From an uncultured virus (IMG/VR IMGVR_UViG_3300044825_001403) (taxonomy: Duplodnaviria; Heunggongvirae; Uroviricota; Caudoviricetes), in the IMG/VR virus record IMGVR_UViG_3300044825_001403, positions 1-64,000 of that record: a DNA stretch of 64,000 nucleotides; one strand, 5' to 3'. This document shows, piece by piece, positions 20,182 through 62,181 of the stretch. The position numbers were made by a program, and so were the translations under genes. Below the pieces are notes generated by a model, which saw only the letters and a program-made list of their open reading frames with translations, was not told the origin of the DNA and searched no databases. Position 1 is the first letter of the stretch. Every line of letters begins with the position of its first letter.

Positions 20182-20204
20182 GGGATAGTTAGTTATACTC
20201 ACGG

Positions 20205-20227: not shown

Positions 20228-20329
20228 ATTTTGTCTTTTTTTACAGTTAGCTATACTTTCCCACTAATCTGCAAATGCTCGATTATACCAATTAGCAAAT
20301 CTTTCAATTTATTAGTATTATCGAAAATC

Positions 20330-20731: not shown

Positions 20732-20974
20732 ATGCCCAGAAGTCGAATGACAAAAAGACCTCAGAACATGTGCTACAATTGCTGGTACACATGGTATCCC
20801 CGAGGGCATTCAGTGTCTTACAAGTGTCCATGCTGCGGCAGCACACGCACGGGTATAGACTTGTCTGGCGTCATCGCCATTGGTCTTCTATTACTTGCAG
20901 GGATTGCCATAGCATATTGGTATATTGTAATACCATTCGGAATACTTGGCTGGGTTATGTACAAAAATAAATAA
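20732..20974 (+). CDS. Zn-ribbon plus transmembrane hypothetical protein
   Basis: CYNC..TW.PRG......CPCCGS then hydrophobic C-terminus. Confidence 0.6.
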   Translation: MPRSRMTKRPQNMCYNCWYTWYPRGHSVSYKCPCCGSTRTGIDLSGVIAIGLLLLAGIAIAYWYIVIPFGILGWVMYKNK

Positions 20975-20994
20975 AGTATGAGTTACATAACACC

Positions 20995-21364
20995 ATGGAA
21001 CACAAAATTACATTCAAAACCAAAGATGGTACTCTAAAAGAGCAACGCTTTGATGACTTTAATCAATTCGCTGACACAATTGAAGAGGTAGCGATGGATT
21101 ATTATACTGGAGTACGCCCAGAAATTGAAGTTGAGACAATTTACCAAAACATGATCAAAAAAGAGAGGGTTACTGAAAATGGACGAGTTGAGACTGAAGC
21201 TGAGTTTCTTAGAGAGGAGAATTGAGAGAATCGAAGAGAAACTCAATCAGATTCCCGTTCCATTCAAATTAATGTACAAACCCCCCTACGAAGAGGAACA
21301 TTCAGACATTGTTGATGTTCTTGATCGTATTATACATAAGTTAAAACAGCTTGAAGATGGCTAG
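20995..21364 (+). CDS. Two small hypothetical proteins (20995-21225, 21179-21364)
   Basis: ORFs leading into the PAAR gene. Confidence 0.65.
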
Positions 21365-43408: not shown

Positions 43409-43615
43409 ATGAACAATTACATTAAAGTTGAAGGTCATGAAAATTTATATCGAGATCCTTCCACTGGTGCCATAGTTAATACAGGTGTTCCAGCCAAGAA
43501 TACATTATCAAAAACTGTTAACACTGTAGTTGATGACATAAATAATTTGAAGAATGAAATTTCTGAAATCAAATCTCTTCTAAAAAATATCGTAGAAAAT
43601 GGCATTAAATCGTAG
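43409..43615 (+). CDS. Small conserved coiled-coil protein
   Basis: KVEGH.NLYRD..TGAIVN, DI..LK.EISEIKSLL; usual neighbour of VrlC-like genes. Confidence 0.8.
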   Translation: MNNYIKVEGHENLYRDPSTGAIVNTGVPAKNTLSKTVNTVVDDINNLKNEISEIKSLLKNIVENGIKS

Positions 43616-46600
43616 AGAAGTACTAAAAACGAATACGTTTGAAGAGCAAAGGCTTGAGATAAATCGATTAGCTCAAGACGTTTACGATGTCTTTACGGGA
43701 GAAGAGGGTGTAGAAGCTATTCAGATCGATGGTCCTATTATTGATGGGACAGATAAAACAGGAACTCAAGGTCAAGTATTATTATCAACTGGATCTGGTG
43801 TTCTATGGAAAACATTATCAATCTCTAATGTTCTTTGGGTAACTAAAGATGGTGATGATGACAATGATGGTTTAAGTCAAGAAACAGCAAAGGCATCTAT
43901 TGGATCAGCTCTTAGAGCCGCTAATTCTGGATTTCTAGGAAAACTTCAAGACGCATCAAATCAAATTTTAGCTAACAAAAAATTAATCCAACAAGAATCT
44001 ATTGGCTGGCTGCTCACAGAATATCTTAAAGAAGGAAATGGAGATAAACAAATTGATGCAGCTAATTTAATAACTGCAAACAAAGATTTTATTGCTAATG
44101 AAGCTGTCGAAAGAATGCTCGGAGAGTATTCTGAATTTACAATTCCTGGAGGAAATCAGCAGTGTGTTAGTGATGTAATCAAAGTATTAGATGCTGTAAT
44201 TTTTAATTTGAGATATGACGGCAATAATAAAGTATATGAAGCAGCAAATGTATATGTAACAAATCCATCTTTATTGGCTGGAGAAAGAGAACAGTCAGTA
44301 GCTGTTTATGAATATGCAAGAGATCTAACAATTTCTGTAATGAGAAATCAACCAATCACTGTGCAAGGGTCTCATGGATATACACAATTTATTGACAACA
44401 CTATCATCGGTGATGCTTCAAATCAACCAGGAATTTATAATTTTTTAACAGATTGTGCCGATATAGCAAGTTCTATTACTTCGCTATATGCAATAATTTT
44501 ACAAGCTATTGGAACAGAAGCATCTCCAGGAGATCTTGATGGAATTACAAAAACATATCCAAATAGATTTACATTTCCAAATAGTCCACCAGAATCTGGA
44601 AGATATAAGGATGCAAGAAATTTAATTTATAGAAACATTGATGAAATTGCTGATAGAGCACTTGCAGAAATTGCAATTCAGTATGACGAATCTACCTGGG
44701 GAACTGATTGGACTTTCCCGAGTGCTTCTCTTTCTGCAGAAACACAGCGTTATAAAGATGCTTATAGATTAATACAAAATAATAGAGCTTATATTATAGA
44801 AGAAGCATTTAACTTTTTATTAGTAAATTATCCTTCATTTGTAAATCCTGATAGTGATAAATGCAGAAGAGATCTTGGTTATTTTATTGATGCAGTATCA
44901 TTAGATTTATTCTTGGGAAGCAACAAATATTCAAGAAAATTTGCTTCTTTCTATTATAGTGGTGCTAATGTTCAATATTTGGAAGATGAAGTTACTGAAT
45001 CTGTAGCAGCTTTTGAAGCTGCAAAAGATTTAATGATTGACGCAATGAAAAATCTTTTACCATATCAAGATTTGAGCATTACTGTAGATAATGACCCAGA
45101 TGGAGTTTGTTTAAACGTAGAGCAATCAATCAATACTTTATTTACTATTATTTCTGATGTGCTATTAAATGGTATAGATGAATTACAAGCATATCCAGAA
45201 ACACCAAGCAATTTATTTGTAAACGAATCAAAATGTCGTAGAGATATAGAATATGTTGCCCGTAGCATTGCAGATGATTTATATAACGGAGGCAACATAA
45301 ACACAATTAGAGCAGCAAGAAAATATTTTGATATTGATGGAGAATTTATTTTAATTGATGGTGAAGGTGTTCAATCACTCATAGCTTTCCAAAAAGCTGG
45401 TGAAATGATTAACAAAGCTTTAACCAACCAGCTTTATGAAAAGAATTTAACTTTACCAGAAGCAGCAGCAGAATATGGTGGAGAAGGTGAAGTTATTCCA
45501 TATGGGGTTTCTGGAAATGAAAATACATGTATAGATGTACAAAATACCGTCAATACATTAATTCAAATTTTAACTACAGTTATAGAAGACGAAACTTTAA
45601 TATCACTAACTGGCATAGAAGAGAACGAAGGTATTTGGGCAGAATATGAAAATATTTGCTTGAGAGATATTGGGTATATTATTGATGCTGTCGCATCTGA
45701 TTTAAAACAAGGCGGAAATGTAAACTGTGTAGATGCTGGTAATGCATACTATAAAGGTAATGAACTAGTCTTTATTGATGGAGAAGAAAGACAGTCATTA
45801 GCTACTTTTGAAAAAGCTAAAGAATTGATGATTTTAGCTATGCGTAATTGGAGTCTTAATATAGATGGAGATACATATCGTCCAAAATATACCTTTATAG
45901 AACCATACATTGACTCATCGTTAATTATTGATACAGAGTTAAATGAAGAAAATCAATCTGTATTAGTATATCCGCCATGCAGTGATGTAGCTTCCTCAAT
46001 TGAAAACTATTTTAATATTATTGAATATATTATTAAAAATGGAGAAAACTCTGTAGCACAACAACTACCTTCATTTAAGACTACAGTATTTGTTAAGTCA
46101 GGGGTTTATGTAGAGCAAAACCCAATGACATTACCACCAAATACAGGTATTGTTGGCGACAACTTAAGAGAGGTTAGTATTTTGCCAGCTATTCCTACCG
46201 TTGATATGTTCTATATGAACAATGGTAGTTATATTACTGGGGCTACATTTTCTGGACATTTGGCTCCATCTGCAATTGGATCATTCCCCAAAGTATTAAT
46301 TGGTAGCCCAGTAAACTTACCTTCTTGCTCTGGAATATCAAATTCATATACTATTACAGTTCCAGGTACAAATAACCTTGTTCTTGGAATGACTGTTAGT
46401 GGAGATGGTATTGGTACGGGAGCTGTAATTACTAAAATTAGAGGTTCGCAAGTAACGTTAAGTGTTGCAAATAGAGAATCATTTACAAATAGAACTATTA
46501 AATTTGAAAACTATGTTGGTCTTACTGGAGTTATTACTCGTTCTCCATATATTCAAAACTGCACCAGTTTAACAACTACTGGTGCAGGTCTTCGTGTTGA

Positions 46601-47597
46601 TGGTAATTTAGCTAGTGGAACCGCATCTTTCGTTCTTGACTCATACACTCAATACAATCAAGGTGGTGATGGTATTGTTATCGTAAACCAAGGTTATACT
46701 CAGTTGGTATCTATCTTTGAAATTTGTTGTGATCGTGCTGTTTATTTGTCTGGCGGATCTACTTGTTCGATTACAAACTCAAACACAGACTTTGGTAATT
46801 TTGGATTGGTAGCTGATGGAACAAGTCCTTTGCAATATAAAGCAAATATTGACTTTAATCAATTAAGAGGCAGTACTTTTAAACTCAAAAATTTAAGAAC
46901 AGAGCCTTATGTAGGACAGGTAATTACTTTTGGTAATAATGGGGATCCATACTATTTTATTCAGGAGATAAATATAACTAATAGTGGTTCTGGATATAAT
47001 CCAAATGATCCACCTACTATTGTCATTGATGCACCAACAGGTCCAGATGGTATTACAGCCCAAGCAATAGCTAATATTGAAGACGGCGAAATTACATCAA
47101 TTACATTGATTTCATCTGGTTCTCAGTTTATCACTGCTCCAAATATTCAAATTGTGGGTGGTGATCCTGATACTCCTGCTACAGCAATAGCTAAAATGTA
47201 TCCTCAATATTATAGTATTATTGCTACTACTGATGTTGATGGAGGAAAATCTACCATTACATTGGATGAAACAGTTCCTTTTGATTTGAATGATAATACA
47301 GAAGTTTACTTCTATCAAGTAACTAAGATTATTGCTAACTCACATTGTTTTGAATATGTTGGTGCAGGAACACAAATTAATAAGGCTATCCCAGCCAAAG
47401 GTGGTGTTCCGTCCCAAGCCTGTGAAGTTGTTGAATTGAATGGTGGTAAAGTTGCTTTTACAAGTACAGATCACCTAGGTAATTTTAGAATTGGTACAGG
47501 TATTCAAATTAACCAAAATACTGGTACATTATCTGGCGACTCCTTTGAAAGAAGTCTTTTCGTAACAGTAACCCCATTCATTCTAGCCCTATCCTAA
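43599..47597 (+). CDS. Virion structural/fibre protein: pectin-lyase-like beta-helix carrying four inserted helical (phycobiliprotein-like) repeats
   Basis: TNTFEEQR.EIN N-terminus; V.KDGDD.NDG...A.SI..A ... VFVKSGVY.E..P......G.VGDNLR; SPYIQNCTS; C.RD..Y..D repeats. Confidence 0.8.
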   Translation: MALNRREVLKTNTFEEQRLEINRLAQDVYDVFTGEEGVEAIQIDGPIIDGTDKTGTQGQVLLSTGSGVLWKTLSISNVLWVTKDGDDDNDGLSQETAKASIGSALRAANSGFLGKLQDASNQILANKKLIQQESIGWLLTEYLKEGNGDKQIDAANLITANKDFIANEAVERMLGEYSEFTIPGGNQQCVSDVIKVLDAVIFNLRYDGNNKVYEAANVYVTNPSLLAGEREQSVAVYEYARDLTISVMRNQPITVQGSHGYTQFIDNTIIGDASNQPGIYNFLTDCADIASSITSLYAIILQAIGTEASPGDLDGITKTYPNRFTFPNSPPESGRYKDARNLIYRNIDEIADRALAEIAIQYDESTWGTDWTFPSASLSAETQRYKDAYRLIQNNRAYIIEEAFNFLLVNYPSFVNPDSDKCRRDLGYFIDAVSLDLFLGSNKYSRKFASFYYSGANVQYLEDEVTESVAAFEAAKDLMIDAMKNLLPYQDLSITVDNDPDGVCLNVEQSINTLFTIISDVLLNGIDELQAYPETPSNLFVNESKCRRDIEYVARSIADDLYNGGNINTIRAARKYFDIDGEFILIDGEGVQSLIAFQKAGEMINKALTNQLYEKNLTLPEAAAEYGGEGEVIPYGVSGNENTCIDVQNTVNTLIQILTTVIEDETLISLTGIEENEGIWAEYENICLRDIGYIIDAVASDLKQGGNVNCVDAGNAYYKGNELVFIDGEERQSLATFEKAKELMILAMRNWSLNIDGDTYRPKYTFIEPYIDSSLIIDTELNEENQSVLVYPPCSDVASSIENYFNIIEYIIKNGENSVAQQLPSFKTTVFVKSGVYVEQNPMTLPPNTGIVGDNLREVSILPAIPTVDMFYMNNGSYITGATFSGHLAPSAIGSFPKVLIGSPVNLPSCSGISNSYTITVPGTNNLVLGMTVSGDGIGTGAVITKIRGSQVTLSVANRESFTNRTIKFENYVGLTGVITRSPYIQNCTSLTTTGAGLRVDGNLASGTASFVLDSYTQYNQGGDGIVIVNQGYTQLVSIFEICCDRAVYLSGGSTCSITNSNTDFGNFGLVADGTSPLQYKANIDFNQLRGSTFKLKNLRTEPYVGQVITFGNNGDPYYFIQEINITNSGSGYNPNDPPTIVIDAPTGPDGITAQAIANIEDGEITSITLISSGSQFITAPNIQIVGGDPDTPATAIAKMYPQYYSIIATTDVDGGKSTITLDETVPFDLNDNTEVYFYQVTKIIANSHCFEYVGAGTQINKAIPAKGGVPSQACEVVELNGGKVAFTSTDHLGNFRIGTGIQINQNTGTLSGDSFERSLFVTVTPFILALS

Positions 47598-47945: not shown

Positions 47946-50900
47946 ATGGCAGAATTATTAAGTCGTAGAGTACGAATTAAACCAGCAGCCGAGGTTGATC
48001 AATCTCGGTATGAATATTTGGGATTAAATCAAGCTGAGCCTAATTTAGGTACTCCGCCAGATGATGTTCAAATTTATTTTCTTGCGTCTGATATTAATGG
48101 TGTAAGAAGATGGGAATCTGGTGTACAAGGTCCACAAGGTATTCAGGGTATTCAGGGTACTAAGGGGGATCCTGGTCCCCAAGGTATTCAGGGTTTACAA
48201 GGCATTCAAGGTATTCAGGGTATTCAAGGTTTAGCTGGTACTTCTGTAAAAATTCTAGGTACAGTTCCAACACCAAACGATCTTCCTGGATATAACCCAA
48301 CTGGTCCAGATACTTATACTGGTGATTACGGAGATGGTTATATTGTTTCTAGTACAGGAAAACTTTGGGTTTGGGCTGTATTAAACAATGAATGGTATGA
48401 AGTAGGAAATATTGTTGGTCCTCAAGGTGCTCAAGGTCGCCAAGGTACGCAGGGTATTGGTGGTTTTGGTGCTCAAGGCACTCAAGGTTTGCAAGGTATT
48501 TCTGGAACAATTGGTGCCCAAGGTGTTCAGGGTCGTCAAGGAACGCAAGGTATTCAAGGTGTTTCTGGGCAAGGTGTTCAAGGTGCTCAAGGTACTGGTG
48601 GATTACAAGGCGGACAAGGTACTCAAGGTATCCAAGGATTTCGTGGTTTGCAAGGAATTCAGGGTGTACAGGGAAGAACAGGAATTCAAGGACCTACTGG
48701 TATTCAAGGTATAAGTGGAGAATTTGGTGGCCAAGGGACTCAAGGTTTGCAAGGAACCACGGGTTCTCAGGGTCCTCAAGGAATTCAAGGACTAAGAGGA
48801 TTTCAAGGAATTCAAGGAATTCAGGGAGCTATTGGTTCTCAAGGTACTCAGGGTAGGGCTATTCAAGGTACTCAGGGTGCTATTGGTCCACAAGGAATTC
48901 AAGGAAGAACTGGATTCCAAGGTGTTCAAGGTTTAGCTGGAACGTTAGGTGCTCAAGGTGCTCAAGGTATTCAAGGTTTCAGGGGCATTCAAGGAAATCA
49001 AGGTATTCAGGGTTTAATTGGACCACAAGGAATTCAAGGTCCTCAGGGTGCTCAAGGAACTAGAGGATTTATTGGCGAACAGGGTGTTCAAGGTATTCAA
49101 GGCACACAAGGAGTTCAAGGTACTCAGGGTATTCAAGGTCTTCTTGGATTCCAAGGTGTTCAGGGTGCTGCAATTCAAGGTACTCAGGGTATTGGTGGTA
49201 CTAGTATTAATATTCTAGGTAGTGTAAATACATTTTTGGACCTTCCTGGGTATCCAAATACTTATACTGGTGTTATTGGTGATTCTTATATTACTAGTGA
49301 TAACGGAGAATTGTGGACATGGAATGGTTCTAATTGGATTAATGCTGGCACGGTAAGAGGTCCCCAAGGTTTACAAGGAGTACAAGGAACTCAAGGAATA
49401 CAGGGCGTACAAGGCGTCCAGGGGCCTCAAGGAGTACAAGGACGCCAAGGTACTCAAGGTTTATCAATTCAAGGTATACAAGGCGTACAGGGGCCACAGG
49501 GAATACAGGGAGTACAGGGTGTACAGGGCCTTCAAGGATTTTCTATTCAGGGTATTCAAGGTATTTTTGGTATTCAAGGTACTCAAGGACCTCAAGGTTT
49601 ACAAGGAATTCAAGGTGTTCAAGGTCCAAGAGGACAGCAAGGTATCCAAGGAATCCAAGGAGTACAAGGACCCCAAGGTGTTCAAGGTGGTGCTGGCACA
49701 TCAGTAAGAATTTTAGGAAACGTAGCAACAGAAAATGCGTTGCCAGGTTATCCAACTTCTTATAATGGAACTGTTGGCGATGCTTATATTGTAAATACAA
49801 CTGGTTTCTTGTGGGTTTGGTCTGGTACTGCTTGGATTGAAGCTGGTAGAATTTTAGGTCCTCAAGGTGCTCAAGGTGTTCAAGGAACTCAAGGTATTCA
49901 AGGTCCTCAAGGATCTCAAGGTATTCAGGGTCCTCAAGGTGTTCAAGGACCTCAAGGTTTACAAGGAATTCAAGGACCTCAGGGGGTTCAGGGAGTACAA
50001 GGTGTACAAGGAGCACAAGGTCGTCAAGGAACACAAGGATTGCAAGGTCCTCAGGGTATTCAAGGATTTAATGCAATTACAGTAGTTAATGATATCAGCA
50101 CAAATGCTGATAGATATATTGTTTTTGAAGAAGCTACTTCTGGTGCTCAAACAGTAATTAATGTTTCTTCCACTAAACTAATCTTCAATCCTTCCACAGG
50201 TAATTTGACCGTTGGTGGTGACACTAGAGCAAATACATTTATTCCTTTAAGTTCTTCTGTACCTTCTTACGGAATTTATCAGCCTGTATCTGGTGCTGTC
50301 GGTATTTCAACAAATAGTCTAGAAAGATTTAGATTAGATACTTCAGGTAATGTTCTGATTGGTACTACAACAAATACTAATTCTTCCAGATTAGTTTCTG
50401 CTGGCACTATTTCTGAAACAGTTAATGCAGAACAATTTTTAGTAGCTTCTCAATTTGACGTTGGTGTTGCACCCAACCAAATTCCACTTAATCAATATCT
50501 TGGACAATTAGCGTTCTTGGATATATACAGTCCATACGCATTAAGAAGAGATGGCGGAGGATCTGATGATGTAACGGTAGATTCAAATGGTAATTTAATT
50601 ACAATTAATGAACTTTGTCTCAGCACTGATCGTTATAGATTAGCTTCTTCGCAAGCAAATTATACTTCATCTACTATTCAAACTTTAGATTCTATATCTA
50701 CAGCAACTTATAGATCAGCTAAGTATTTTGTTCAAGTAACTGCAACAAATCAAATTGCTACATTTGGAACAATAACTGGAGGAAGTTTCTATCTAGCAGG
50801 AACTTATGTAAATGTTCCTTTAACTGGAGGAACTGGTTCTGGAGCAGTTGCAACAATTACTGTTAATGGTTCTTTATCCAATATTACTTCAGTTGCATCT

Positions 50901-51452
50901 AGCGTATTTACATCAAACGGTCATGGATTAACGGCAAACCAACCATTAAGATTTAATGCCACTGTTGCAGGTACTCCTGGTGTTACTTCAACGTCAGCAG
51001 TTTATTATGCAATTGTAGTTGATGCAAATACTTTCCAAGTTGCAACATCTTCTGGAGGTACTGCTGTAACTGGATTCACTGATAACGCAGCATTGAACGT
51101 AAGTATTACTAAGTCTGGTGGTGTTTCGAGCATTACTTTAGTTGATGCTGGTTCTGGATTTACTGTAAATGATTCAATGACTGCTTCGGTTTCTAATTTA
51201 GGTGGTGCTACTGGAGGATCTGGATTTACTGTTCCTGTTGCCACACTAACATCAAATCATATGGTTTCGGATATTATTTTAATTCATGACGGAACTACTG
51301 CAGATATTTTAGAATTAGCTAATATGAGCACTGCAAATATAACATTAGGAACATTCTCTACAGATATTTCAAGTTCTACTATGAGACTAAGATTTACTCC
51401 AGCATATCAATACAATACAATTAAAGTCGCAAGACATGCATTTACCGTCTAG
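47946..51452 (+). CDS. Collagen-like tail fibre protein
   Basis: Long Gly-X-Gln tracts with three globular interruptions; C-terminal YRSAKYFVQ fibre domain. Confidence 0.88.
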
Positions 51453-51460
51453 GAGTAGTC

Positions 51461-53851
51461 ATGGCAATATCTCAAAATTTTCCTAGTGAAGGTCCTAATT
51501 TATATGTCAATTTTGCTGGTTCAAAAACTTTAGATCCTAGGATTAATTTTTCTAGAGCTAGTACAGGAACTTATGTTGATGCAGATGGATTAATTAAAAC
51601 TGCTGCAATTAATAGACCTAGGTTTGATCATAATATTCTTACAGGAGAATCTTTAGGACTATTGGTAGAGCCAGGAAGAACTAATTTATTAAGACAAAGT
51701 ATTGTTAGACCAGATTTACCTGGAGATACTTATTCATTTTGGACTTCATTTATAGGCGGAACTACAATTAGACCATATGCTGAATTATCTCCAGATGGCA
51801 CATTCAATGCAGCATTAGTTCAGAACTCCACTGCATCAATTGGCGACATGTTGTTACGTTATGAACAATCTCTTGCTGGTGTTTCTGGGTTGGTTGACTC
51901 GATTTGGGTCAAAGCAGTTAGTGGTACTGTCACTGTTGCTATGTATGGCAGCCCAACGGCCCAAGACACAGTTACAAATGTGACATTTGGAACGCAATGG
52001 ACCCGCCTTTCGATGAGAAGACCGTCTTCAGCTAACTATTTTCTCAAATTGATAAAAATAAGTGCAACTCCAGTATCTTTTTATGTATGGGGAGGACAAT
52101 GTGAAAGTGGTACTTTTTCAACTAGCTTTATTCCAACTTTACCCACATTTACTTCAAGGGCTTCTTCAGCAACTTTTTACGACTCTACAGGAATCCTAAG
52201 AACTGCAGCAACTAACGTAGCAAGAAGTAATGCGTTTTTTCCAGATAGTTCTGGGGTGTTTAGAAGTGGTGGGTTGTTGCTTGAATCTGCTGCTACAAAT
52301 TTGTGTATTAGATCAGAAACATTCACTGCAGCTCCATGGACAGACTTTACTGCAAATGTAAGCATAACAGCAAATCAATTAGATCCTGCTGGTGGAACTA
52401 CAGCATCACTAGTAACTCATACCGCAGGAACAAGTCGCCACAGAGTATCAGAAAAAATTTCAACCACAAGAGTATCTAGAAGTTTTTATGTAAAAAAAAC
52501 AAATCAACGTTACATTTATGTTGGAGATCAAAATGCCAGTAATTATAGTCCAAATTATAGATTTGATTTAGATACTGGTACTGGTGCTGTAATTGCGGAT
52601 TCATTTGGATATAATTATGGGTATTCTATAACTAAAGTTGCAAATGAATTTTACAGGATCTGGGTAGATTGTGTATCACAAGATATAACTCAAATAGTTG
52701 CATCAAATACTTTATCATCATCAGGAACAAATCCATTATCAACAAATGAAACCGCAACAGGTACAGAATCTTTTATTATTTGGGGATATCAAGTTGAAAC
52801 AGGAACTTATTTCACTTCATACATTCAAACAACAGGAGCAACAGCAACAAGAGCAGCAGATGTAACAACAAGTTCTGCAGTAACTCGTAGTGCGGATATA
52901 GTAAGTTTATCAGGAACTTCGTCAATTGTAAATACTTCTGGAGGAACTTTATTATCTTTAAGTAACCAAACTTCTCCTGTAATCGATACAACATCTTTAT
53001 CAATTAATTCAACATCATTATCAACTTCCAGACCAGTTAGAGAAATTTTATATTATCCTACAGTATTAACTTCAACTACCATAAAACAAATTAAAGCTTT
53101 TCCTTCATTTGTTACTAATGGTTTGCAATTACATTTAGATGCTGGCAATACTAGTTCTTATTCAGGATCTGGAAGTACTTGGACAGATTTAAGTGGTAAC
53201 GGACGTAACTTTACTTTAGTTAATTCTTCTTATTATGCATTTGATTCTGCTAATGAAGGTTCTATAAGATTGACAAGAACATTACCCCCTACAGCAGAAA
53301 CTGGAGGTTATGCAGAACATACTGGTTCTGGAGCATTAGCGGTTACTACGTATCTTTATAATAATCATACTACAGAAATTTGGGCAAGAATTAATGATAG
53401 AAATCCAACAAACCATACTGTAAATGAAACTCAAAGTGCATTATTTGTTTATCGTGGGTGGCATTCTATGTTTTACTATGGATCTAGTGCATTAACTTAT
53501 ACAGTTTATGATGGTGCTTCAACTGCAAGAGATGCAGTAGGGTTATCAATAGGAACATCAGGAACAGATATTATTCAAGGAACATGGTTTAATGTAGTAG
53601 TTACAAGAAATGGAAATATTTTTAGTACTTATATTAACGGAGTTTTAAAAGGATCAATCACATTAATTACTAGTTCTTCTGGTGTTAATACAACGAATAG
53701 TATTAGAATCGGAATGGCAAATCCATCAGGTGAAGATTTTAGTTGGCACGCAGATGCTAATGTTTCATGTGCAAGGATGTATAACATAGCTCTTACTGCG
53801 TCTGAAGTTGCACAAAACTTCAACGCCCTTCGTGGTCGTTATGGTATCTAA
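51461..53851 (+). CDS. Lectin-like fibre protein (2 carbohydrate-binding-like modules + C-terminal LamG/ConA domain)
   Basis: FSRASTGTY...PRFD...GLLVE..RTN; GL.LHLDAGN..SY.GSGSTW.DLSGN; YN.AL...EV.QNFNA.RGRYGI. Confidence 0.8.
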   Translation: MAISQNFPSEGPNLYVNFAGSKTLDPRINFSRASTGTYVDADGLIKTAAINRPRFDHNILTGESLGLLVEPGRTNLLRQSIVRPDLPGDTYSFWTSFIGGTTIRPYAELSPDGTFNAALVQNSTASIGDMLLRYEQSLAGVSGLVDSIWVKAVSGTVTVAMYGSPTAQDTVTNVTFGTQWTRLSMRRPSSANYFLKLIKISATPVSFYVWGGQCESGTFSTSFIPTLPTFTSRASSATFYDSTGILRTAATNVARSNAFFPDSSGVFRSGGLLLESAATNLCIRSETFTAAPWTDFTANVSITANQLDPAGGTTASLVTHTAGTSRHRVSEKISTTRVSRSFYVKKTNQRYIYVGDQNASNYSPNYRFDLDTGTGAVIADSFGYNYGYSITKVANEFYRIWVDCVSQDITQIVASNTLSSSGTNPLSTNETATGTESFIIWGYQVETGTYFTSYIQTTGATATRAADVTTSSAVTRSADIVSLSGTSSIVNTSGGTLLSLSNQTSPVIDTTSLSINSTSLSTSRPVREILYYPTVLTSTTIKQIKAFPSFVTNGLQLHLDAGNTSSYSGSGSTWTDLSGNGRNFTLVNSSYYAFDSANEGSIRLTRTLPPTAETGGYAEHTGSGALAVTTYLYNNHTTEIWARINDRNPTNHTVNETQSALFVYRGWHSMFYYGSSALTYTVYDGASTARDAVGLSIGTSGTDIIQGTWFNVVVTRNGNIFSTYINGVLKGSITLITSSSGVNTTNSIRIGMANPSGEDFSWHADANVSCARMYNIALTASEVAQNFNALRGRYGI

Positions 53852-53877
53852 ATAATTAATAAAATAAATTTAAGACT

Positions 53878-54132
53878 ATGTACGAAAATCGACAGTTTGC
53901 TATATTTGCAACATCAGAATTAGATAAAATTGATTTCACTCAAGTTTTAGAAACTTCTGTAGATACTGTAAGAAAATCTGTAGATGGAACTAAGACTTTT
54001 GTAAAGTGGGATTCTGAAGAAATTCCTACATGTATTCAAGAATTAACTACACTTCAAGGTTATTATACTTATGAACAAATGCTTGAGCTTTTAAATACTT
54101 CTGAATGGTCATCTAAGGAACAGAGTGTATAA
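53878..54132 (+). CDS. Small fibre-associated protein
   Basis: EL.KIDF.QVLETS..T.RKSVDGTKTFVKW; own late promoter. Confidence 0.75.
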   Translation: MYENRQFAIFATSELDKIDFTQVLETSVDTVRKSVDGTKTFVKWDSEEIPTCIQELTTLQGYYTYEQMLELLNTSEWSSKEQSV

Positions 54133-57100
54133 ATGTCATTTACACAGAATATTCAATCCGTTGCTCCTACATTAAATATAAATTTTACTAAATCTAATCG
54201 ACTAGATTCTCGTATTAGTTTTAGTAGAAGTAGCTCTGGCACTTATTTTAATAGCCAAGGTGTTTTAACTACTGCAGCAACTAATGTACCAAGATTTCAA
54301 AATGAATTTAATTCAACTTTAAATCGTTGGGTTCCTAAAGGATTGTTGGTTGAAGAAAGTAGAACAAATAAAGCATCAAATTCAGTAAACTTTATTTCTG
54401 GTTCTACCATCATTCCTTATTATGAAATTGCTCCAGATGGCACTCTTACAGCTTTAGCTTATCAACCCCCAAGTGATGCTAATAGTGCAGGAACTCACGA
54501 AAAATATGCAATATTTCCTGGGCTAACAATTAATGTAGGAGATACTGTAACTATTTTTGCAAAAAGAAAACCAGGATCAGCTTTAAAATTTTTGCACCTA
54601 AGAATATTTACTAGTGGTTGGCTTAATTCGTATAATTTAGAAACTGGTGCAGTGAGTATTAATGACCCTGCTATGCCTGGATCTATGACAAATGTAGGTA
54701 ACGGATGGTGGAGATGTGAGTTTACTAATTTTGCTTCTGCAGGAAATACAACACTCCTAAGAATATGGGTTAGCACTAATGGTAGTATAGGAAATGCAAC
54801 TAATGGAGATCCTATGTATCTTTGGGGTCTTCAATCAGAAACTGGTATCAATCCAACTTCATACATTTCAACATTTCCTTTATTTTCTTCCAGGGCTTCA
54901 TCTGCAACCTATTATGATTCTACTGGAATTATTAGGACAGCAGTAACTAACGAAGCGAGAAGTGCAGCATTTTTACCAAGTAGCACAGGAACATTTGCAA
55001 GAGTTGGAACTTTACTTGAAAGTGCTGCTACTAATTTACTTCAATATAGTGAAGACTTTAGGAATGCTATGTGGTCAAAAAGTGAGGTAACTTTAATTAG
55101 CAATACGCCAGCAACTACTGCTCCAGACGGATCACTAAATGCAACTAAACTTGTTGAAACTAGTGCAACATCAGTACACAGACTTAGTATGTCAGTGAAT
55201 CCTTCTGGTTTTCAAGACTGGGCATTAAGTGTATTCGCCAAAGCTGCTGAAAGAAGCGTACTTACATTGATGCCTGCTACCACAGGTGGCGGAGATTCCC
55301 CTGTTTATTTTGACCTATCTGCTGGCACATTTACCATTGCTGGATCTAGTGCGGTTAATGCTTCTATGCAAAAGCTGTCTAATGGTTGGTATCGGTGCTC
55401 TGTTTATGATGGTGCTGCTGGGTTTGGCTATCCATTTATTGGTCTTGTTGCTACATCTGGAACTCATTCATATACAGGTGATGGAACTTCAGGTGTATAT
55501 ATTTGGGGTGCTCAGTTAGAAGTAAATTCATTTTCTACGTCATATATTAAATCAATGCCTTCATTTACATCAAGGGCATCTTCTGCAACTTATTATGATG
55601 TCAATGGAATTTTAAGAACTGCTGCTGTTAATGAAGCAAGAAGTAATGCATATTTACCAGACAGTTCTGGGGTGTTTAGAAGTATTGGATTATTATATGA
55701 AGGTGCTGCAACAAATCTTGCTACCCATAGTGAACAACTAAGTAGTTGGGGTAACAATGGAAATGGTATAATAATTACTACAAATTCAGAAATTGCTCCA
55801 GATGGAACTTTGACCGCAGATAGATTATCTCAATCTTCTGTCACTAATGCAAATAGAACTTTGTTTAATCCTGCTAGTACCGTAAGATCAGGACAAATAC
55901 TTACAACAAGTTTTTGGATGAAAAAAGTGAGTGGGACTAACACAGAACCATCTATTTCCGTATGTGGTATTGGTGGTGGTCCTTGTCAAACTATTACTGT
56001 TACATCTGATTGGAAAAGATATACATACACTTTTACTGCAATCAATGATGGGGGAAATTATGAAGTAGGATCTATTAACATTGGTTGGAATCTCAATGGT
56101 GCGGCAAATAATAATGTGTATGCTTTATGGGGATTCCAAGTTGAAGTTGGTTCTTTAGCAACATCATACATCTCAACGACAAATGCAACAGTAACAAGAT
56201 CTGCTGATGTAGTTTCAAGTTCAACTGTAACAAGAGCAGCAGATGTAACTACTAGTGCAACAGCAACGAGAGCTGCAGATAATGTAAGTATTAGTGGATC
56301 TAATTTTACAAATATTCATAATCCAACGGAAAATACTTTAGTTTCTATTGGAGAAGAAAATCTTTATACATTATCTTCAACTGCATTAACAATAAATTCA
56401 AATTCTAAATTAGATAGTACAGTTTCTAATCTAATATATTATCCAAAAGCACTCCAATATGCTTCATTAAAATCATCTAGTGCATATCCTGCTATTATTT
56501 CTGATGGTTTAGTATTAAATCTTGATGCAAGTAGTAGAAAATCATACAGAACTCCTGGTGCTACTTGGAGAGATTTGAGTATTAATAATATTAGTGCTAC
56601 ATTATCTAACGGTCCTACTTTTAATAGTTCTAATAGTGGTTCAATTGTTTTTGATGGTGTTGATGATCGAATAACCTTAGGAACTCCAACAGCACTAACT
56701 GCTTTATTTGGAACTAATGCAGTTTCTGTAGAAGTTTGGTTGAGAAGATCAGCAAATATTACTTCGCAAAAAATTGTATTTGATTCAGGAACTAATGAAT
56801 ATATTCAGATGGATATAAATTCAAATCAATTATCTTTTGCTATAGGAACACCAACAAGCGTTAGATCTGCTAGAAGTGCTACTTTAGATTTAGATGTTTG
56901 GTATCATTATGTTGGTGTGTACAATGGAACAACAATTACAACATATTTAAATTCTGTCCAAAGTTCTCAGATAGCACAAACTGGAAATATTGCAACTGAC
57001 AGTGGAGGATTTTTTATAGCATCTTATACATCAGGTTTTAATTTTCCTGGAAGAATTGCTTCGGTTAAAGTTTATAACAAAGCATTATCTTCTACAGAAG

Positions 57101-57144
57101 TTACTCAAAACTTCAACGCACAACGTAGACGTTTTGGAATCTAA
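54133..57144 (+). CDS. Lectin-like fibre protein (3 modules + LamG/ConA domain)
   Basis: Paralog of 51461; three SRASS...GLL.E...TN...WG.Q.E...TSYI units. Confidence 0.8.
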   Translation: MSFTQNIQSVAPTLNINFTKSNRLDSRISFSRSSSGTYFNSQGVLTTAATNVPRFQNEFNSTLNRWVPKGLLVEESRTNKASNSVNFISGSTIIPYYEIAPDGTLTALAYQPPSDANSAGTHEKYAIFPGLTINVGDTVTIFAKRKPGSALKFLHLRIFTSGWLNSYNLETGAVSINDPAMPGSMTNVGNGWWRCEFTNFASAGNTTLLRIWVSTNGSIGNATNGDPMYLWGLQSETGINPTSYISTFPLFSSRASSATYYDSTGIIRTAVTNEARSAAFLPSSTGTFARVGTLLESAATNLLQYSEDFRNAMWSKSEVTLISNTPATTAPDGSLNATKLVETSATSVHRLSMSVNPSGFQDWALSVFAKAAERSVLTLMPATTGGGDSPVYFDLSAGTFTIAGSSAVNASMQKLSNGWYRCSVYDGAAGFGYPFIGLVATSGTHSYTGDGTSGVYIWGAQLEVNSFSTSYIKSMPSFTSRASSATYYDVNGILRTAAVNEARSNAYLPDSSGVFRSIGLLYEGAATNLATHSEQLSSWGNNGNGIIITTNSEIAPDGTLTADRLSQSSVTNANRTLFNPASTVRSGQILTTSFWMKKVSGTNTEPSISVCGIGGGPCQTITVTSDWKRYTYTFTAINDGGNYEVGSINIGWNLNGAANNNVYALWGFQVEVGSLATSYISTTNATVTRSADVVSSSTVTRAADVTTSATATRAADNVSISGSNFTNIHNPTENTLVSIGEENLYTLSSTALTINSNSKLDSTVSNLIYYPKALQYASLKSSSAYPAIISDGLVLNLDASSRKSYRTPGATWRDLSINNISATLSNGPTFNSSNSGSIVFDGVDDRITLGTPTALTALFGTNAVSVEVWLRRSANITSQKIVFDSGTNEYIQMDINSNQLSFAIGTPTSVRSARSATLDLDVWYHYVGVYNGTTITTYLNSVQSSQIAQTGNIATDSGGFFIASYTSGFNFPGRIASVKVYNKALSSTEVTQNFNAQRRRFGI

Positions 57145-57171
57145 AATAAATACTGATAAACATCAATACCC

Positions 57172-60100
57172 ATGAGTATCTCACAAAATTTATCATCCAT
57201 TAGACCTACTTTAAATTTAAATTTTGCGAGATCTAAAAATTTAGATCCTAGAATTACTTTCACTAGAAGTAGTTCAGCAACTTATATTGATAAAAATGGT
57301 ATATTAAAAACGGTTGCTACTAATATTCCTCGTTTTGGTTATAATGGATTAACTGGAGAATCTACAGGATTATTATTAGAACCAAGTAAAACAAATTTAT
57401 GTAACTATACTAATTATGTAAAATTGTGGGCTAATAAAGATGGTATTCCTCAGATGATAAGTGAAAATACCGATCTTGCTCCAGATGGAACATATACTGC
57501 TACCAGAATAATTTTATCTCCAGTAAATTATTTTACTGGTAAACTATTTACATTTTCTTTTACTAGCACAGTAAAGTGCTTAAGTATTTTTGCTAAAAAT
57601 CCTTTATCAGGTACTAATTCTTTAGCTATTGAAGGTGCAGGTAGAATTTTAATTAATTTTAATGGACAAAGTATTACAAGTATAAGTGTCGATAATGGTT
57701 CTCCATCATATACTTATGATACACTAGCAAATGGGTGGTATCGTTTTACTATTATTGAGGATGGAACTAGTAATAATAGATTTACTATGATGGGGTGGTT
57801 TAATGGAACTGGTAAACCAATTCTTCTTTGGGGAGCAATGGCTGAATATAGTCCCCGCCCGACATCACATATACCAGCCCCAGCAACATTTACTTCAAGG
57901 GCTTCTTCAGCAACCTTCTACGATTCTACAGGAATCTTAAGAACTGCCGCAACTAATGTAGCAAGATCAGATGCTTATTTTCCTGACAGTTCTGGTGTGT
58001 TTAGAAGCACTGGGTTATTACTTGAAAACTCAGGAACTAATTTACTTTATTATAGTCAAGATTTTGATGTGACTTCTTGGTGGGGATCTACTGGGGCAAA
58101 TGTGTTTAAAGCCCCGCAAACATTAGCTCCAGACGGAACATATACTGCAGACTTTTTGGTAGAAGATACTTCAACTGGAAATCATAGTTTATCAACTACG
58201 AATAATGTTTATACCGTAGTAGCTGAATATTATACTCATAGTGTATATGTTAAAGCTGCAGGAAGAACTCAGATTGGTATAGGATATAGAGATTCTGGAT
58301 TTACATTATTTGATTTAACAACCAAACAAATAACAATTGTTCAGCAGATAGCAAACGGATCTATTGTAGCAAATAATATAGATACATTACCAAATGGATG
58401 GTTTAGATTATCGTCCACTATTCTGGGTAGTGGTGTTAATTATAACCGTAGGGCTCAAATATTTTTATGTAGTGGAGGAACTGCTTCGTATGCGGGTGAT
58501 GGTGTTTCTGGTGCTTATATATGGGGATATCAAGTAGAACAAAGTTCATATGCGACATCTTATGTTCCTACACCAGCTGGATTTTCTTCTAGAGCATCTA
58601 CTGCAACTTACTTTGATTCTACTGGTTCTTTACGAACTGCGGCAATAAATGAACTTAGAAATAATGCTCATTTTCCTGATAATTCTGGAGTTTACAGAAA
58701 TGTAGGAAATTTATTAGAACCAGCAGCAACAAATTTAACAGGAAGTTCTGTATTTTCAAATGGTTGGAGTCAATTAGGATCTGGTAGATTTACAGCTGCT
58801 GCTGATCCTGTTGGTGGTATGCAAGCTACTTTAGTTACACCATTATATACTACTTCATATAATGGTTTTCAAAATAATGCAAGTATTGCTGGAGGAACAT
58901 ATATCGTTTCTTTTTATGCTAAAGCAAATGGATACAACTGGGTTGGATTAAAAGCCTGGGCAGGAAATCCTTGGTTTTATACAGCCGCTGGTTATAATTT
59001 AAGTACTTTAGCACCATTTACTTATATTCAAGGTGGTCAAACTGATTATATATTCACTCCATTTAATATTCAAAATGCTGGTAATGGATGGTATAGAGTT
59101 AGTTTTAAAGTAGTTGCTTCTGGAGGGTTTAGTAGCCAACTTCAAATTCTTGTTTATTCTGATTTACCAAGTCAACATGCTATTAATTGGACGCCAAATG
59201 GAACTTCAGGTGCATTTTTTTGGGGGGTTCAAATTGAATCTAGTCCAATAGCTACATCATATATTCCAGTATTACCAACATTTACATCAAGGGCATCCAC
59301 TGCAACTTATTTTGATTCTAATGGTATTTTAAGAACTGCTGGGGTTAACGTTGCTAGATCTGATGCATATCTTCCAAATACAAGCGAAGTTTATAGACCA
59401 GTAGGTTTATTGTTAGAAGGATCCTCAACTAATCTAGCACGAAACTCAGAAGACTTTACGCAATGGGCATCTAATGGAAATGGCATTGGTGTTTCTGCAA
59501 ATCAAAGTGTTGCATTAGATCGCACAACTACAGCAGATCATTTATTTCAAACTGCTGCTACAGGAGCTGGTCGTTGGATTGGTTCAGTTTCAAGAACAGT
59601 TACTGGAGGAACTACTTATACTATAAGCTGTTGGGTAAGAAGAGTTAGTGGTACTGATGGTCAACCATCAATACAAATGGGATTTATTAATAGCGGAGAA
59701 TATGGTACAAGTATAACTTCTCAAGTTACTTCTTCATGGAAACGTTTTTCTGTTACAGTTACTCCAGTAGCCACCGTAAACACATGGATAGGATTTAGTA
59801 TTGGGTGGAGTGATTCTGGAGTTGCAAATAATAATGTTTATGCTGTTTGGGGATTCCAAGTTGAAGTTGGTGTTACTGCTACATCATATATTCCTGTAAC
59901 TAATGCAGATGTAACCCGTGCTGCTGATGTTTCTACTTCAGCATCGGTAACTAGATCTGCCGATATCTTAACTACTCAATCAACGGCAACAAGAGCCTCA
60001 GATGTATCATCAAGTTCTGCAGTAACAAGAGCAGCAGATTCTGCAAGTATTACTGGAACAAACTTTAGTAGTTGGTATAATTCTTCTGGCGGTACATTAT

Positions 60101-60927
60101 TATCTTTAAGAGAAGGTAACTCTTCGGTATTAACGACATCTTCATTAACTTTAAACTCTAGTTATACAAAAACTAATACTATTTCAAATCTTCTATATTA
60201 TCCAACGGCACTTTCATATAATGCAATTGAAAGAATGAATGGATCTATGCCATTAGTGTCTTCTAATTTAGCTTTAAATTTAGATGCAGGGATATTATCA
60301 TCTTATTCAGGTCTTGGTACGACTTGGACAGATTTAACAGGAAACAATAATAATGGAACATTAACAAATGGTCCAACATACAGCTCATCTAATCAAGGTT
60401 TTATCAGATTAGATGGTGTAAATGACTTTATAGATTTTGGAAATAACACGACATTATATAATGCTTATGATACATCATTTACACAAGAGTTTGCAGTAAG
60501 AATGCTATCTGGTGCTTCTACATTCAGAACACTGTTTAGAGTTGATGATTGGTCTAGAATTTCTACACAAATTTCTATTCTAGGAATAGCATTTACAATT
60601 GGATATTCTACCCCATCTGATAATTTAATTCATAATACTTCACTAGATTATAATCAATGGTATTTGGTTACTACTGTATGGTCTAAATTAAATACACAAA
60701 AAATTTATATTAATGGAATTTTAGTAGCACAAACTATACCAACTATTTCTAATTACACAGGAATTCAAGGAACAGCGGGAGGAGTAAATATTGGTAGAGG
60801 TCATTCAGATCCATTTACAAATAATCTTAATGCAGATATAGGGTTCTTTAGACATTATACAAGAGTTTTAACAGACTCAGAAATTAGACAAAATTATAAT
60901 GCTACTAAATATCGTTTTGCTGCTTAA
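57172..60927 (+). CDS. Lectin-like fibre protein (4 modules + LamG/ConA domain)
   Basis: Paralog with four units. Confidence 0.8.
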   Translation: MSISQNLSSIRPTLNLNFARSKNLDPRITFTRSSSATYIDKNGILKTVATNIPRFGYNGLTGESTGLLLEPSKTNLCNYTNYVKLWANKDGIPQMISENTDLAPDGTYTATRIILSPVNYFTGKLFTFSFTSTVKCLSIFAKNPLSGTNSLAIEGAGRILINFNGQSITSISVDNGSPSYTYDTLANGWYRFTIIEDGTSNNRFTMMGWFNGTGKPILLWGAMAEYSPRPTSHIPAPATFTSRASSATFYDSTGILRTAATNVARSDAYFPDSSGVFRSTGLLLENSGTNLLYYSQDFDVTSWWGSTGANVFKAPQTLAPDGTYTADFLVEDTSTGNHSLSTTNNVYTVVAEYYTHSVYVKAAGRTQIGIGYRDSGFTLFDLTTKQITIVQQIANGSIVANNIDTLPNGWFRLSSTILGSGVNYNRRAQIFLCSGGTASYAGDGVSGAYIWGYQVEQSSYATSYVPTPAGFSSRASTATYFDSTGSLRTAAINELRNNAHFPDNSGVYRNVGNLLEPAATNLTGSSVFSNGWSQLGSGRFTAAADPVGGMQATLVTPLYTTSYNGFQNNASIAGGTYIVSFYAKANGYNWVGLKAWAGNPWFYTAAGYNLSTLAPFTYIQGGQTDYIFTPFNIQNAGNGWYRVSFKVVASGGFSSQLQILVYSDLPSQHAINWTPNGTSGAFFWGVQIESSPIATSYIPVLPTFTSRASTATYFDSNGILRTAGVNVARSDAYLPNTSEVYRPVGLLLEGSSTNLARNSEDFTQWASNGNGIGVSANQSVALDRTTTADHLFQTAATGAGRWIGSVSRTVTGGTTYTISCWVRRVSGTDGQPSIQMGFINSGEYGTSITSQVTSSWKRFSVTVTPVATVNTWIGFSIGWSDSGVANNNVYAVWGFQVEVGVTATSYIPVTNADVTRAADVSTSASVTRSADILTTQSTATRASDVSSSSAVTRAADSASITGTNFSSWYNSSGGTLLSLREGNSSVLTTSSLTLNSSYTKTNTISNLLYYPTALSYNAIERMNGSMPLVSSNLALNLDAGILSSYSGLGTTWTDLTGNNNNGTLTNGPTYSSSNQGFIRLDGVNDFIDFGNNTTLYNAYDTSFTQEFAVRMLSGASTFRTLFRVDDWSRISTQISILGIAFTIGYSTPSDNLIHNTSLDYNQWYLVTTVWSKLNTQKIYINGILVAQTIPTISNYTGIQGTAGGVNIGRGHSDPFTNNLNADIGFFRHYTRVLTDSEIRQNYNATKYRFAA

Positions 60928-60954
60928 AATAAATACCAATAAACATTCAATAAA

Positions 60955-62181
60955 ATGAGTAAGTTTCAAACTATAACTTCTAGTGCTGAGTTAGATTATC
61001 CTAAAGTTCTTCCAACTTTAGATCTTAATTTTGATGCAACAAAAACATTAGATCCTAGAATTATTTTTACTAGAAGTTCTGGAGGAACTTATGTTGATGA
61101 AACTGGTATCATTAGAATTGCTGGTGTTAACCAACCAAGATTTGATCATAATCCTTTGACTGGTGAATGTCTTGGTTTGTTGGTGGAAGAGAGTAGGAGT
61201 AATAACCAAGCATTCAGTAATACTTTTAATTCAGCAGGATTATCTGGAGCCGATTATAGGTGGCAAGATATTGTTGCAGTAACTGCACAAAATAATTTAT
61301 ATCCCGATCCATTCGGTACTAATACTGCAACAAGAATCATTCCTACAACTACTTCTACTTCACATTATATTGGTAGATATCAAGCATATGGAACTGCAGC
61401 ACATGCACATTCTGTATTTTTAAAACCTGCTGGATATAGTAGAGTATTGGTAGAAGTAAACGGAAATACATTTACTGCAAATCTTTCTGGTAGTGGTAGT
61501 TTTGCAAATAATAATTCTACTACATATGCAACAAAAATTCAAGCATTTTCAAACGGGTGGTATAGATTAGAATGGATTTGGAATAATACTGGCGGCGGTG
61601 GTGCTAATACGACAATGCCAAGAATTTTTATTTTAGACAATTCTGGTAATTCTACATTTGCTGGAAATGGTGCATCAGGCATTGATTTTTTTGGATATCA
61701 GCAAGAATTTGGTTTCTTTTGTACATCATACATCCCAACAGGAGCTTCTGCATTAACAAGGGCTAGAGATAATTTAAGTATTTCTTTAACACCTTGGTAC
61801 AATAACAATGAAGGCACAGTATTATTTAATTCTTCTCTTTCTGACAGCACTGATGGCACACCATCTATAATTTTTGGTCCATATCTTTGGGCCACTGCTC
61901 CTAATTTATGGAGAACAAGTGGAAATCAAGGTATACTAAATACTAGCTCTTCAAGGACAACAAGAACTAGACATATATTTGCACTTAGACAAAATGATCA
62001 TGCTCTTTGTATTAATGGAGGATCTGTGTCAACACCTTTTGCAAATAATTCTCATTCTCCATCTGGAGGTTCTGTAGTAGGATTTAACAGTAGTGGATCA
62101 ACACTAAATGGATATTTAAATCGTTTAACATATTGGCCTATAAGATTATCCAATCGGACATTACAAAGACTTACCGAATAA
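60955..62181 (+). CDS. Lectin-like fibre protein (1 module)
   Basis: PTLDLNF...KTLDPRI.FTRSSGGTY...; C-terminal LNGYL.RLTYWP.RLSN..LQ.LT. Confidence 0.8.
   Translation: MSKFQTITSSAELDYPKVLPTLDLNFDATKTLDPRIIFTRSSGGTYVDETGIIRIAGVNQPRFDHNPLTGECLGLLVEESRSNNQAFSNTFNSAGLSGADYRWQDIVAVTAQNNLYPDPFGTNTATRIIPTTTSTSHYIGRYQAYGTAAHAHSVFLKPAGYSRVLVEVNGNTFTANLSGSGSFANNNSTTYATKIQAFSNGWYRLEWIWNNTGGGGANTTMPRIFILDNSGNSTFAGNGASGIDFFGYQQEFGFFCTSYIPTGASALTRARDNLSISLTPWYNNNEGTVLFNSSLSDSTDGTPSIIFGPYLWATAPNLWRTSGNQGILNTSSSRTTRTRHIFALRQNDHALCINGGSVSTPFANNSHSPSGGSVVGFNSSGSTLNGYLNRLTYWPIRLSNRTLQRLTE

Follow-up and report, generated by a model that had tools for sequence, protein, structure and literature searches.

Candidate recursively nested phycobiliprotein-type domains in a tail-fiber-like protein of an uncultured cyanophage

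A tail-fiber-like virion protein gene of an uncultured member of the Caudoviricetes raises the question of how two kinds of helical repeat, present in equal numbers and interleaved with one another, can be accommodated at the start of what appears to be a β-helix. The gene, whose product (P0001 among the proteins compared here) has 1332 residues, lies in a window of 64,000 nucleotides, namely positions 1 to 64,000 of the IMG/VR record IMGVR_UViG_3300044825_001403, a viral record of 127,664 bp rated 67% complete. An initial annotation, made from the sequence of the window, had ordered the eight repeat halves as N1 N2 C2 N3 N4 C4 C3 C1, placed every insertion just ahead of a C-x-R-D helix, taken the halves to be nested, and held that the whole block separates two normally adjacent β-helix start motifs. 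Our analysis bears out these readings and adds a likeness that had gone unrecognized there: one N and one C half are predicted to make up a globin domain of the phycobiliprotein type. We consider it likely (with a probability of roughly 0.8) that four such domains are recursively nested with the topology ( () (()) ) and that they interrupt the β-helix start of a virion fiber protein.

Predicted fold, probable nesting and insertion site of the repeat units

The repeats were delimited by self-BLAST of eight segments against the full protein, and hidden Markov models (HMMs) of the N and C halves were then iterated on 100 homologs. Both give the same succession over residues 112–818, four short N and four long C units, which the HMMs read as NNCNNCCC. 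Self-BLAST places the units as in Table 1, with N1 beginning slightly earlier (residues 108–148); the C units match one another with pairwise expectation (E) values of 5e-3 to 9e-18, and N2, N3 and N4 do so at 1.7e-4 to 5e-4. A C-x-x-D motif opens every C unit, in the form CVSD in module 2, CRRD in modules 3 and 4 and CLRD in module 1.

Sequence comparison points to the phycobiliproteins. The Pfam family PF00502 (Phycobilisome protein) matches the 1332-residue protein with 38.9 bits (cut-off 22.2, E 1.1e-9), and scanning the virus's own genome with it gives 24.3 and 19 bits. When the pieces are scored separately, the contiguous N2C2 and N4C4 obtain 22.2 and 20.1 bits, respectively, and the lone C3 and C1 are unmatched; the match of N4C4 spans profile positions 31–103, thereby crossing the junction of its two halves. 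In the reverse direction, a profile built from 16 contiguous and diverse NC units matches CpcA (E 2e-4), with the cysteine of the unit falling on the Cys of KCARDIGYY, and a profile of the full-length alignment finds a single weak match among the PDB sequences, again to CpcA (E 0.26). An AlphaFold2 model of residues 95–830, built from a 24-row alignment (predicted local distance difference test, pLDDT, 77.2; predicted template-modeling score, pTM, 0.69), is all-helical, and its top Foldseek matches in the PDB are all phycobiliproteins (best E 0.011; template-modeling score on the target 0.57–0.72). With VIA-align, model residues 283–429, which correspond to N4 and C4 (residues 377–523 of the protein), superpose on residues 28–176 of 8u0f_C with a Z-score of 17.7 and a root-mean-square deviation (rmsd) of 2.1 Å over 136 aligned residues; 257 of 996 chains reach a Z of at least 8, and the best 50 of these 257 comprise only phycobiliproteins and a related fluorescent protein.

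On these predicted models, the N half would supply helices A–B and the C half helices E–H of a domain that shares the globin-like helices A, B, E, F, G and H with the phycobiliprotein β subunits (CpcB, CpeB). The likeness extends to a Cys84-x-Arg86-Asp87 motif and to residues that align with Asp39 and Cys153/155. Unlike the β subunits, with which they share 15–20% identity, the phage modules are without the X–Y hairpin, have in their contiguous units a B–E loop shortened by about 7 residues, and stand repeated and nested in the single chain of a virion protein. The missing hairpin is reflected in the alignments of the predicted models, which begin at chain residue 28–33, and a helix from the parent module, or the cap helix of the β-helix start, sometimes fills the position of X or Y (model residues 252/253 fall on chain residues 3–7, and residue 101 of the ortholog P0047, described below, on chain residue 20). 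Because the best structural matches are β chains and the second conserved cysteine of the C unit aligns with β Cys153, the domain, now lacking the X–Y helices, most likely derives from a β-type phycobiliprotein of a cyanobacterial host. Assembly of the modules into (αβ)3 phycobilisome rings is unlikely, given the missing hairpin and the virion context.

We propose that each domain is split at the B–E loop into an N half of about 35 residues (helices A–B) and a C half of about 120 residues (helices E–H, starting with the Cys84-x-Arg86-Asp87 motif), and that this loop would hold another complete domain. Module 1 (N1 to C1) would contain module 2 (N2C2) and module 3 (N3 to C3), and module 3 would in turn contain module 4 (N4C4). 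In such an arrangement the chain would travel outward via the N halves and return via the C halves, with each module held by two strands; the ends of the array would therefore meet, which would let it sit in a loop of the β-helix. The innermost contiguous unit may fold first, with the outer modules closing round it, and the array would form a stiff or rigid branched projection whose size would be set by the gain or loss of whole modules and which would serve in contacting the host surface. The invariant bilin-site residues may mean that the modules still bind a ligand.

The pairing of the outermost halves can be read from P0047, an ortholog of 796 residues. Its residues 1–140 match residues 1–140 of the 1332-residue protein, with a nearly identical N1, and its residues 151–796 match residues 682–1332 (75% identity, 997 bits), with its N and C units contiguous; N1 and C1, by comparison, lie about 540 residues apart in the 1332-residue protein. 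An AlphaFold2 model of P0047 residues 112–278 superposes on residues 33–177 of phycobiliprotein β chains with a Z of 17.2 and an rmsd of 1.9 Å over 138 aligned residues, a comparison for which the module region alone was used (block means of pLDDT 64–85), the model of the whole protein being poor (pLDDT 56.4, pTM 0.44). As the contiguous N and C of P0047 are modeled as one domain, N1 and C1 appear to be two parts of a single domain. In N2C2 and N4C4 the two halves already adjoin each other, which leaves N3 and C3 as partners. That N3 packs with C3 is thus suggested by elimination and is consistent with a weak complex prediction, in which N3 (residues 328–372) and C3 (residues 538–668) score 0.48 against 0.01 for the best of three controls; a custom alignment was used, the runs share at least 61% of their contacts and the pLDDT of the partner is at least 49. 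Of 157 solved complexes, 116 attain the mark that this pair passed, as do 2 of 215 mismatched pairs; a passing score of at most 0.60 was seen in only 18 of the 157 solved complexes and in both of the passing mismatches. Resemblance to phycobiliproteins of known structure may account for the pass.

The insertion site emerges from homologs that are free of the modules. In BLASTP, residues 53–95 of one such fiber protein, P0197 (526 residues), align with residues 69–111 of the 1332-residue protein, residues 96–155 with residues 828–887, and residues 171–524 with residues 977–1331 (46% identity). The complete start motif (strand, Asp/Gly-rich turn, cap helix and first rung) of right-handed β-helix tailspikes and fibers of phages is thus present in two parts, which together align with P0197 53–155. 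The cap-helix motif KASIGSALRAA (residues 98–108, nucleotides 43890–43922) and the first-strand motif TTVFVKSGVYVE (residues 828–839, nucleotides 46080–46115) have between their counterparts only three or four residues in P0197, P0188, P0167, P0201, P0208, P0153 and P0111. Since the flanks are adjacent in these insertion-free homologs, the block of 716 residues interrupts the β-helix start, and does so exactly between cap helix and first strand. In the homologs P0137, P0081 and P0052, the start motif is covered by DUF1565 (23.5–30.9 bits, cut-off 20.3), and the pectate-lyase-like Pect-lyase_RHGA_epim is also matched by homologs there. From the known tailspikes and fibers the protein differs in this break and in a Beta_helix score of its own below the cut-off.

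Comparison within the orthologous group, which we defined by a first N unit that begins at residue 115–122 (28 proteins), argues for modules that come and go as wholes and against a chance pattern. The initial annotation had proposed counting N and C units in homologs as a check, and in this close family the strings are balanced: 27 of the 28 are clean, and the remaining one (P0019) is balanced if a split C is counted once. The architectures are NC, NNNCCC, NNCNNCCC, NNCNNNCCNCCC and NNCNNNCCNNCCNCCC, with 1, 3, 4, 6 or 8 modules. Moreover, the insertions and deletions that distinguish the orthologs are contiguous balanced blocks, namely N2C2 (179 alignment columns, missing from orthologs of 1140 and 796 residues), the block from N3 to C3, and (()) blocks of 340 and 341 columns.

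The initial annotation had also suggested that linear HMM searches would miss nested repeats. This is borne out in that Pfam matches only the contiguous N2C2 and N4C4; the contiguous unit of P0047 is missed by PF00502 as well, so that divergence must matter in addition to nesting. The case calls for caution in annotation, as linear profile searches detect the innermost contiguous copies only.

Nested domains as such are not new. In GroEL, with its equatorial, intermediate and apical domains, the chain leaves one domain, builds another and returns, which gives a bracket-like topology in which the ends of the insert are close together. To our knowledge, the domains nested in one another in known cases are mutually unrelated and only a few levels deep. 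The phage array differs in nesting one family within itself, three deep here and to a depth of ten in a relative, with sibling branches. Among the phycobiliproteins, the core-membrane linker ApcE has its PB-loop between helices B and E. The part of PMC11789067 available to us describes this α-APC domain of ApcE as tolerating an insert of 50–70 residues while still binding bilin; unlike the phage case, that insert is a loop rather than a folded copy of the domain, is one level deep and belongs to a cellular protein. Domain insertion and phycobiliproteins are thus each already known, and precomputed annotations of these homologs already show the PF00502 match; a literature search, from which subscription journals were largely absent, returned nothing on phycobiliprotein-like domains in phage virion proteins or on recursive self-nesting. 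The array would carry a rule of protein architecture unusually far, with one family repeatedly inserted in its own loop to give a bracket string as the product, and the natural series of orthologs could be used in studying the folding of discontinuous domains and the tuning of fiber reach.

Table 1. Coordinates of the fiber gene and its parts in the window
Feature	Nucleotides	Residues	Strand	Basis
Tail-fiber-like virion protein gene (P0001)	43599..47597	1332 in all	+	Open reading frame list and translation
β-helix domain start, first strand and cap helix (upstream flank)	43827..43931	77-111	+	Aligns with P0197 53-95
N1, predicted helices A-B, outermost module	43932..44042	112-148	+	Self-BLAST, HMM; nearly identical to P0047 N unit
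N2, predicted helices A-B, module 2	44043..44156	149-186	+	Self-BLAST, HMM; PF00502 positions 27-68 / 30-76
C2, predicted helices E-H, module 2	44157..44528	187-310	+	CVSD C189; second Cys C286
N3, predicted helices A-B, module 3	44586..44714	330-372	+	Self-BLAST, HMM; model helices at residues 333-345 and 347-360
N4, predicted helices A-B, innermost module 4	44730..44852	378-418	+	Self-BLAST, HMM; structural match of N4+C4
C4, predicted helices E-H, module 4	44853..45188	419-530	+	CRRD C422; second Cys C504
C3, predicted helices E-H, module 3	45219..45602	541-668	+	CRRD C546; second Cys C644; partner N3 by elimination
C1, predicted helices E-H, outermost module	45642..46052	682-818	+	CLRD C687; second Cys C794; 75% identical to P0047 C unit
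Presumed right-handed β-helix body, opening with TTVFVKSGVYVE (downstream flank)	46080..46928	828-1110	+	Aligns with P0197 from residue 96
Second insertion, about 89 residues, in β-helix body, unrelated to the helical modules	46260..46526	888-976	+	P0197 has residues 156-170 only there
C-terminal part common to insertion-free fiber proteins	46929..47594	1111-1332	+	P0197 homology, PHROG

Bilin-site residues and a possible link to light

Residues that hold the pigment in phycobiliproteins are retained in the phage modules. Among 277 distinct C units, the cysteine and the aspartate at +3 of the opening motif are invariant (100% each), the arginine at +2 is found in 83%, and a second cysteine at the start of the last helix in 88%; helix A contains one invariant Asp and one invariant Asn (100% each) among 225 distinct N units. 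By sequence, the C-x-R-D motif corresponds to the Cys84/Arg86/Asp87 bilin-attachment motif of phycobiliproteins. HMMER aligns the Asp of helix A with residue 39 of the phycocyanin β chain and the second cysteine with Cys153 of GDCSALAAEI, the latter alignment by itself being worth 1.0 bit. In agreement with this, residues 379–523 superpose on residues 31–172 of 2vjr_B in such a way that, provided the helices contain no gaps, D387 falls on residue 39 and C504 on residue 153. Asp87 and Asp39 we take to be the residues that hold the pyrrole nitrogens of the β-84 and β-155 bilins.

Hence, the modules could conceivably be functional bilin-binding domains rather than spacers only, with bilin carried at the Cys84-like and Cys155-like cysteines, a reading that we regard as tentative. 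In addition to the conserved residues and their placement, it draws on the reported enzymology and distribution of the lyases: as far as the consulted portions of the two sources go, T-type lyases are specific for β Cys-155 (PMC2327270), and cpeT is found among cyanophages in myoviruses only, in 31 of 153 genomes (PMC10452541). Against it, the conserved residues could be structural, module 2 has CVSD and thus no Arg, and a child domain in the B–E loop adjoins the site and might occlude it. Moreover, neither CpeT nor a bilin reductase was found in the virus's own record, itself a fragment as noted above.

The fold of the host's light-harvesting antenna would be displayed on a virus particle with its bilin-site residues invariant. 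If the modules do bind bilin, they could constitute a substrate for the phage CpeT and offer a candidate molecular basis for the light-dependent adsorption of cyanophages. In the text of PMC6628666 available to us, S-PM2, P-HM1 and P-HM2 require light to adsorb, P-SSM2 can also do so in darkness but to a lesser extent, and P-SSP7 and P-GSP1 adsorb in the dark; that source ascribes light dependence to light-sensitive receptors and/or tail fibers, leaving the choice between them unresolved. The module profile matches all three light-only phages (12 times in S-PM2 and 5 times each in P-HM1 and P-HM2) and none of the three dark-adsorbing ones, in a comparison of six non-independent phages of which two represent one species and two are podoviruses. 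Among the five phages checked for cpeT, it was found in S-PM2, P-HM1 and P-HM2 but not in P-SSM2 or P-SSP7. In S-PM2, about 1.4 kb separates cpeT (S-PM2p215) from the downstream S-PM2p218, a module-bearing gene for a protein of 3779 residues, which is followed by gp12. The match of modules, cpeT and light-dependent adsorption is anecdotal, a lead rather than a result. That the virion-displayed modules are bilin-carrying photoreceptors, chromophorylated by the phage CpeT or by host lyases, and underlie the light-dependent adsorption of some cyanomyoviruses, is improbable on what we have.

As a side observation, 16 transfer RNA features are annotated inside the S-PM2p218 coding sequence (AJ630128.1, 160000–178000), which look like stale coordinates.

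The wider family and the growth of the array

Among the 100 homologs, 56 have clean balanced N/C strings that represent 15 distinct architectures, 5 have clean unbalanced strings, and 39 give partial hits. With relaxed thresholds, P0046 turns out to be a truncated prefix and P0076 resolves to a run of NC, with P0063 and P0067 remaining unbalanced. The most elaborate clean case is P0235, read as N10 C7 N2 C5, which has 12 N and 12 C units, reaches a depth of 10 and is composed of hits that are all at E 5e-7 or better. An exhaustive profile search extends the family to 1568 representative proteins at E ≤ 0.001, with 661 at E ≤ 1e-30, and in some members, about 6000 residues long, as many as 37 stretches are matched. 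Tandem arrays dominate the top 146 representatives, with a running depth of 1 in 111 of them.

Several observations weigh against the nested arrangement or against parts of it. The strings of these 146 representatives are clean and balanced in 14, clean and unbalanced in 12 and partial in 120; broadened HMMs give 18, 43 and 85, respectively, and broadening on 246 proteins with merging of split C hits rendered the strings no cleaner and cost P0235 one N. In 122 of the 146, the C count exceeds the N count, and many tandem arrays finish with an extra truncated C. The excess of C fits a short N model that misses units, and some could be orphan C units. Within the 1332-residue protein itself, N1 matches only N4 among the N units, and weakly (self-BLAST E 0.009–0.013), one of the three runs of the N3–C3 complex, itself a weak pass, scored 0.15, and the proposed N1–C1 and N3–C3 contacts come from the ortholog and from elimination, respectively. 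As for the β-helix, Pfam Beta_helix gives the protein 9.8 and 11 bits (E 0.76 and 0.32) against a cut-off of 25.9, the search of PDB sequences with the full-length profile found no β-helix match, and the corresponding region in the model of P0047, although rich in strands, has a low pLDDT, in keeping with the overall value of that model. In P0081 and P0052, furthermore, nothing breaks the β-helix start motif (DUF1565), and the modules are found elsewhere; the cap-helix site must therefore be particular to the orthologous group, and the module array has entered fiber proteins at more than one place.

In P0081 the start motif occupies residues 68–134 and the modules residues 363–687, and in P0052 residues 503–556 and 798–1319, respectively, which places NNCC and NNNCCC arrays 230–250 residues downstream. 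Another group of five (P0225, P0233, P0243, P0275 and P0285) has long (NC)n arrays that begin after a segment similar to a C unit's final helix and end in an extra C without that helix, as if the array had been circularly shifted. An outer N was sought upstream of such (NC)nC arrays, and none was found, the place being taken by the piece that resembles helix H.

How a nested array of this kind could grow is a separate matter. The initial annotation had proposed repeated insertion of the domain into its own loop, which is plausible, and our data do not separate it from other routes of duplication. The three short families of DNA repeats in 43800–46200, the best of 53 nucleotides at 75% identity, indicate that there was no recent duplication in the fiber gene. 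An unlikely alternative is that the N halves multiplied in tandem on their own (N to NN) and the C halves did so later (C to CC), with selection retaining only balanced outcomes and with no whole domain ever entering its own loop. Runs such as N10 followed by C7 are indeed very regularly spaced, and neighboring units are often mutual best matches (scores of 355 for C4–C5 of P0007 and 365 for C3–C4 of P0028); a few strings have unequal N and C counts. The similarity matrices of N and C units are only loosely congruent in Mantel tests, with rho of −0.31 for P0001 (2890 of 5000 permutations reaching the value), 0.15 for P0007 (1662), 0.48 for P0003 (196), 0.56 for P0028 (234) and 0.50 for P0026 (438), which leaves this congruence undecided between the routes of growth. 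Set against separate duplication are the single contiguous balanced blocks by which close orthologs differ, the absence of unbalanced intermediates among the 28 orthologs, and the linkers: the return linker before a parent C half repeats the loop motif of contiguous units (residues 526–546 versus 409–422). Linker lengths are uniform across the 56 balanced proteins, with medians of 10 residues from N to N, 3 from N to C and 20 from C to C.

That the array is instead an ordinary linear rod of two helical repeat types, with equal counts by coincidence and no nesting, is very improbable. The all-helical prediction for residues 95–830 would allow it, but the N1 and C1 of P0047 form one contiguous globin-type domain, contiguous NC units fit a compact fold at a Z of 17, and the 15 balanced architectures include one as intricate as N10 C7 N2 C5.

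The fiber gene and its surroundings

We interpret the 1332-residue product as a probable fiber or baseplate-associated virion protein of a T4-like cyanomyovirus. PHROG tail-fiber families match it with E values of 4e-126 to 3e-108, the best stretch of PHROG 4527, from which a T4 gp12-type label would come ('short tail fiber protein', E 4e-126), falling within the modules (residues 479–674), and PHROG baseplate and tail-fiber families cover residues 1235–1315. A tblastn search finds the protein in 441 phage records, nearly all of them cyanophages, under labels such as tail fiber and structural protein and with identities all below 60%; a megablast search of the gene (43599..47597) against phage records gave no match. 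Shorter homologs of its C-terminal part number 1609 at E ≤ 1e-10. A fold search of BFVD returned only cyanophage tail or structural proteins, whose names are uninformative.

The neighboring genes appear, by their sequence matches, to mark the virus as a T4-like cyanomyovirus: baseplate wedge genes (PHROG 219 and 438) lie upstream of the fiber gene and a collagen-like fiber gene downstream, and genes for two giant structural proteins (2874 and 2701 residues) are also nearby.

Away from these genes, a GC-rich island at 17300–20000 has a GC fraction of 0.60 in 18001–20000, compared with about 0.30–0.42 elsewhere, and its open reading frames overlap on both strands; one on the + strand (17502–18347) matches Pfam GP88 (PF17338, E 7.8e-42), and an Rfam search of 16500–21000 gave no match. 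The island may be of foreign origin or reflect a chimeric assembly.

The collagen-like fiber (47946–51452, 1168 residues), which matches PHROG collagen-like tail fiber families, has long G-x-y runs that are broken three times by a conserved globular segment. It is followed, at 51461–62181, by four paralogous tail proteins in a row, of 796, 1003, 1251 and 408 residues, whose N-termini all match PHROG 5939.

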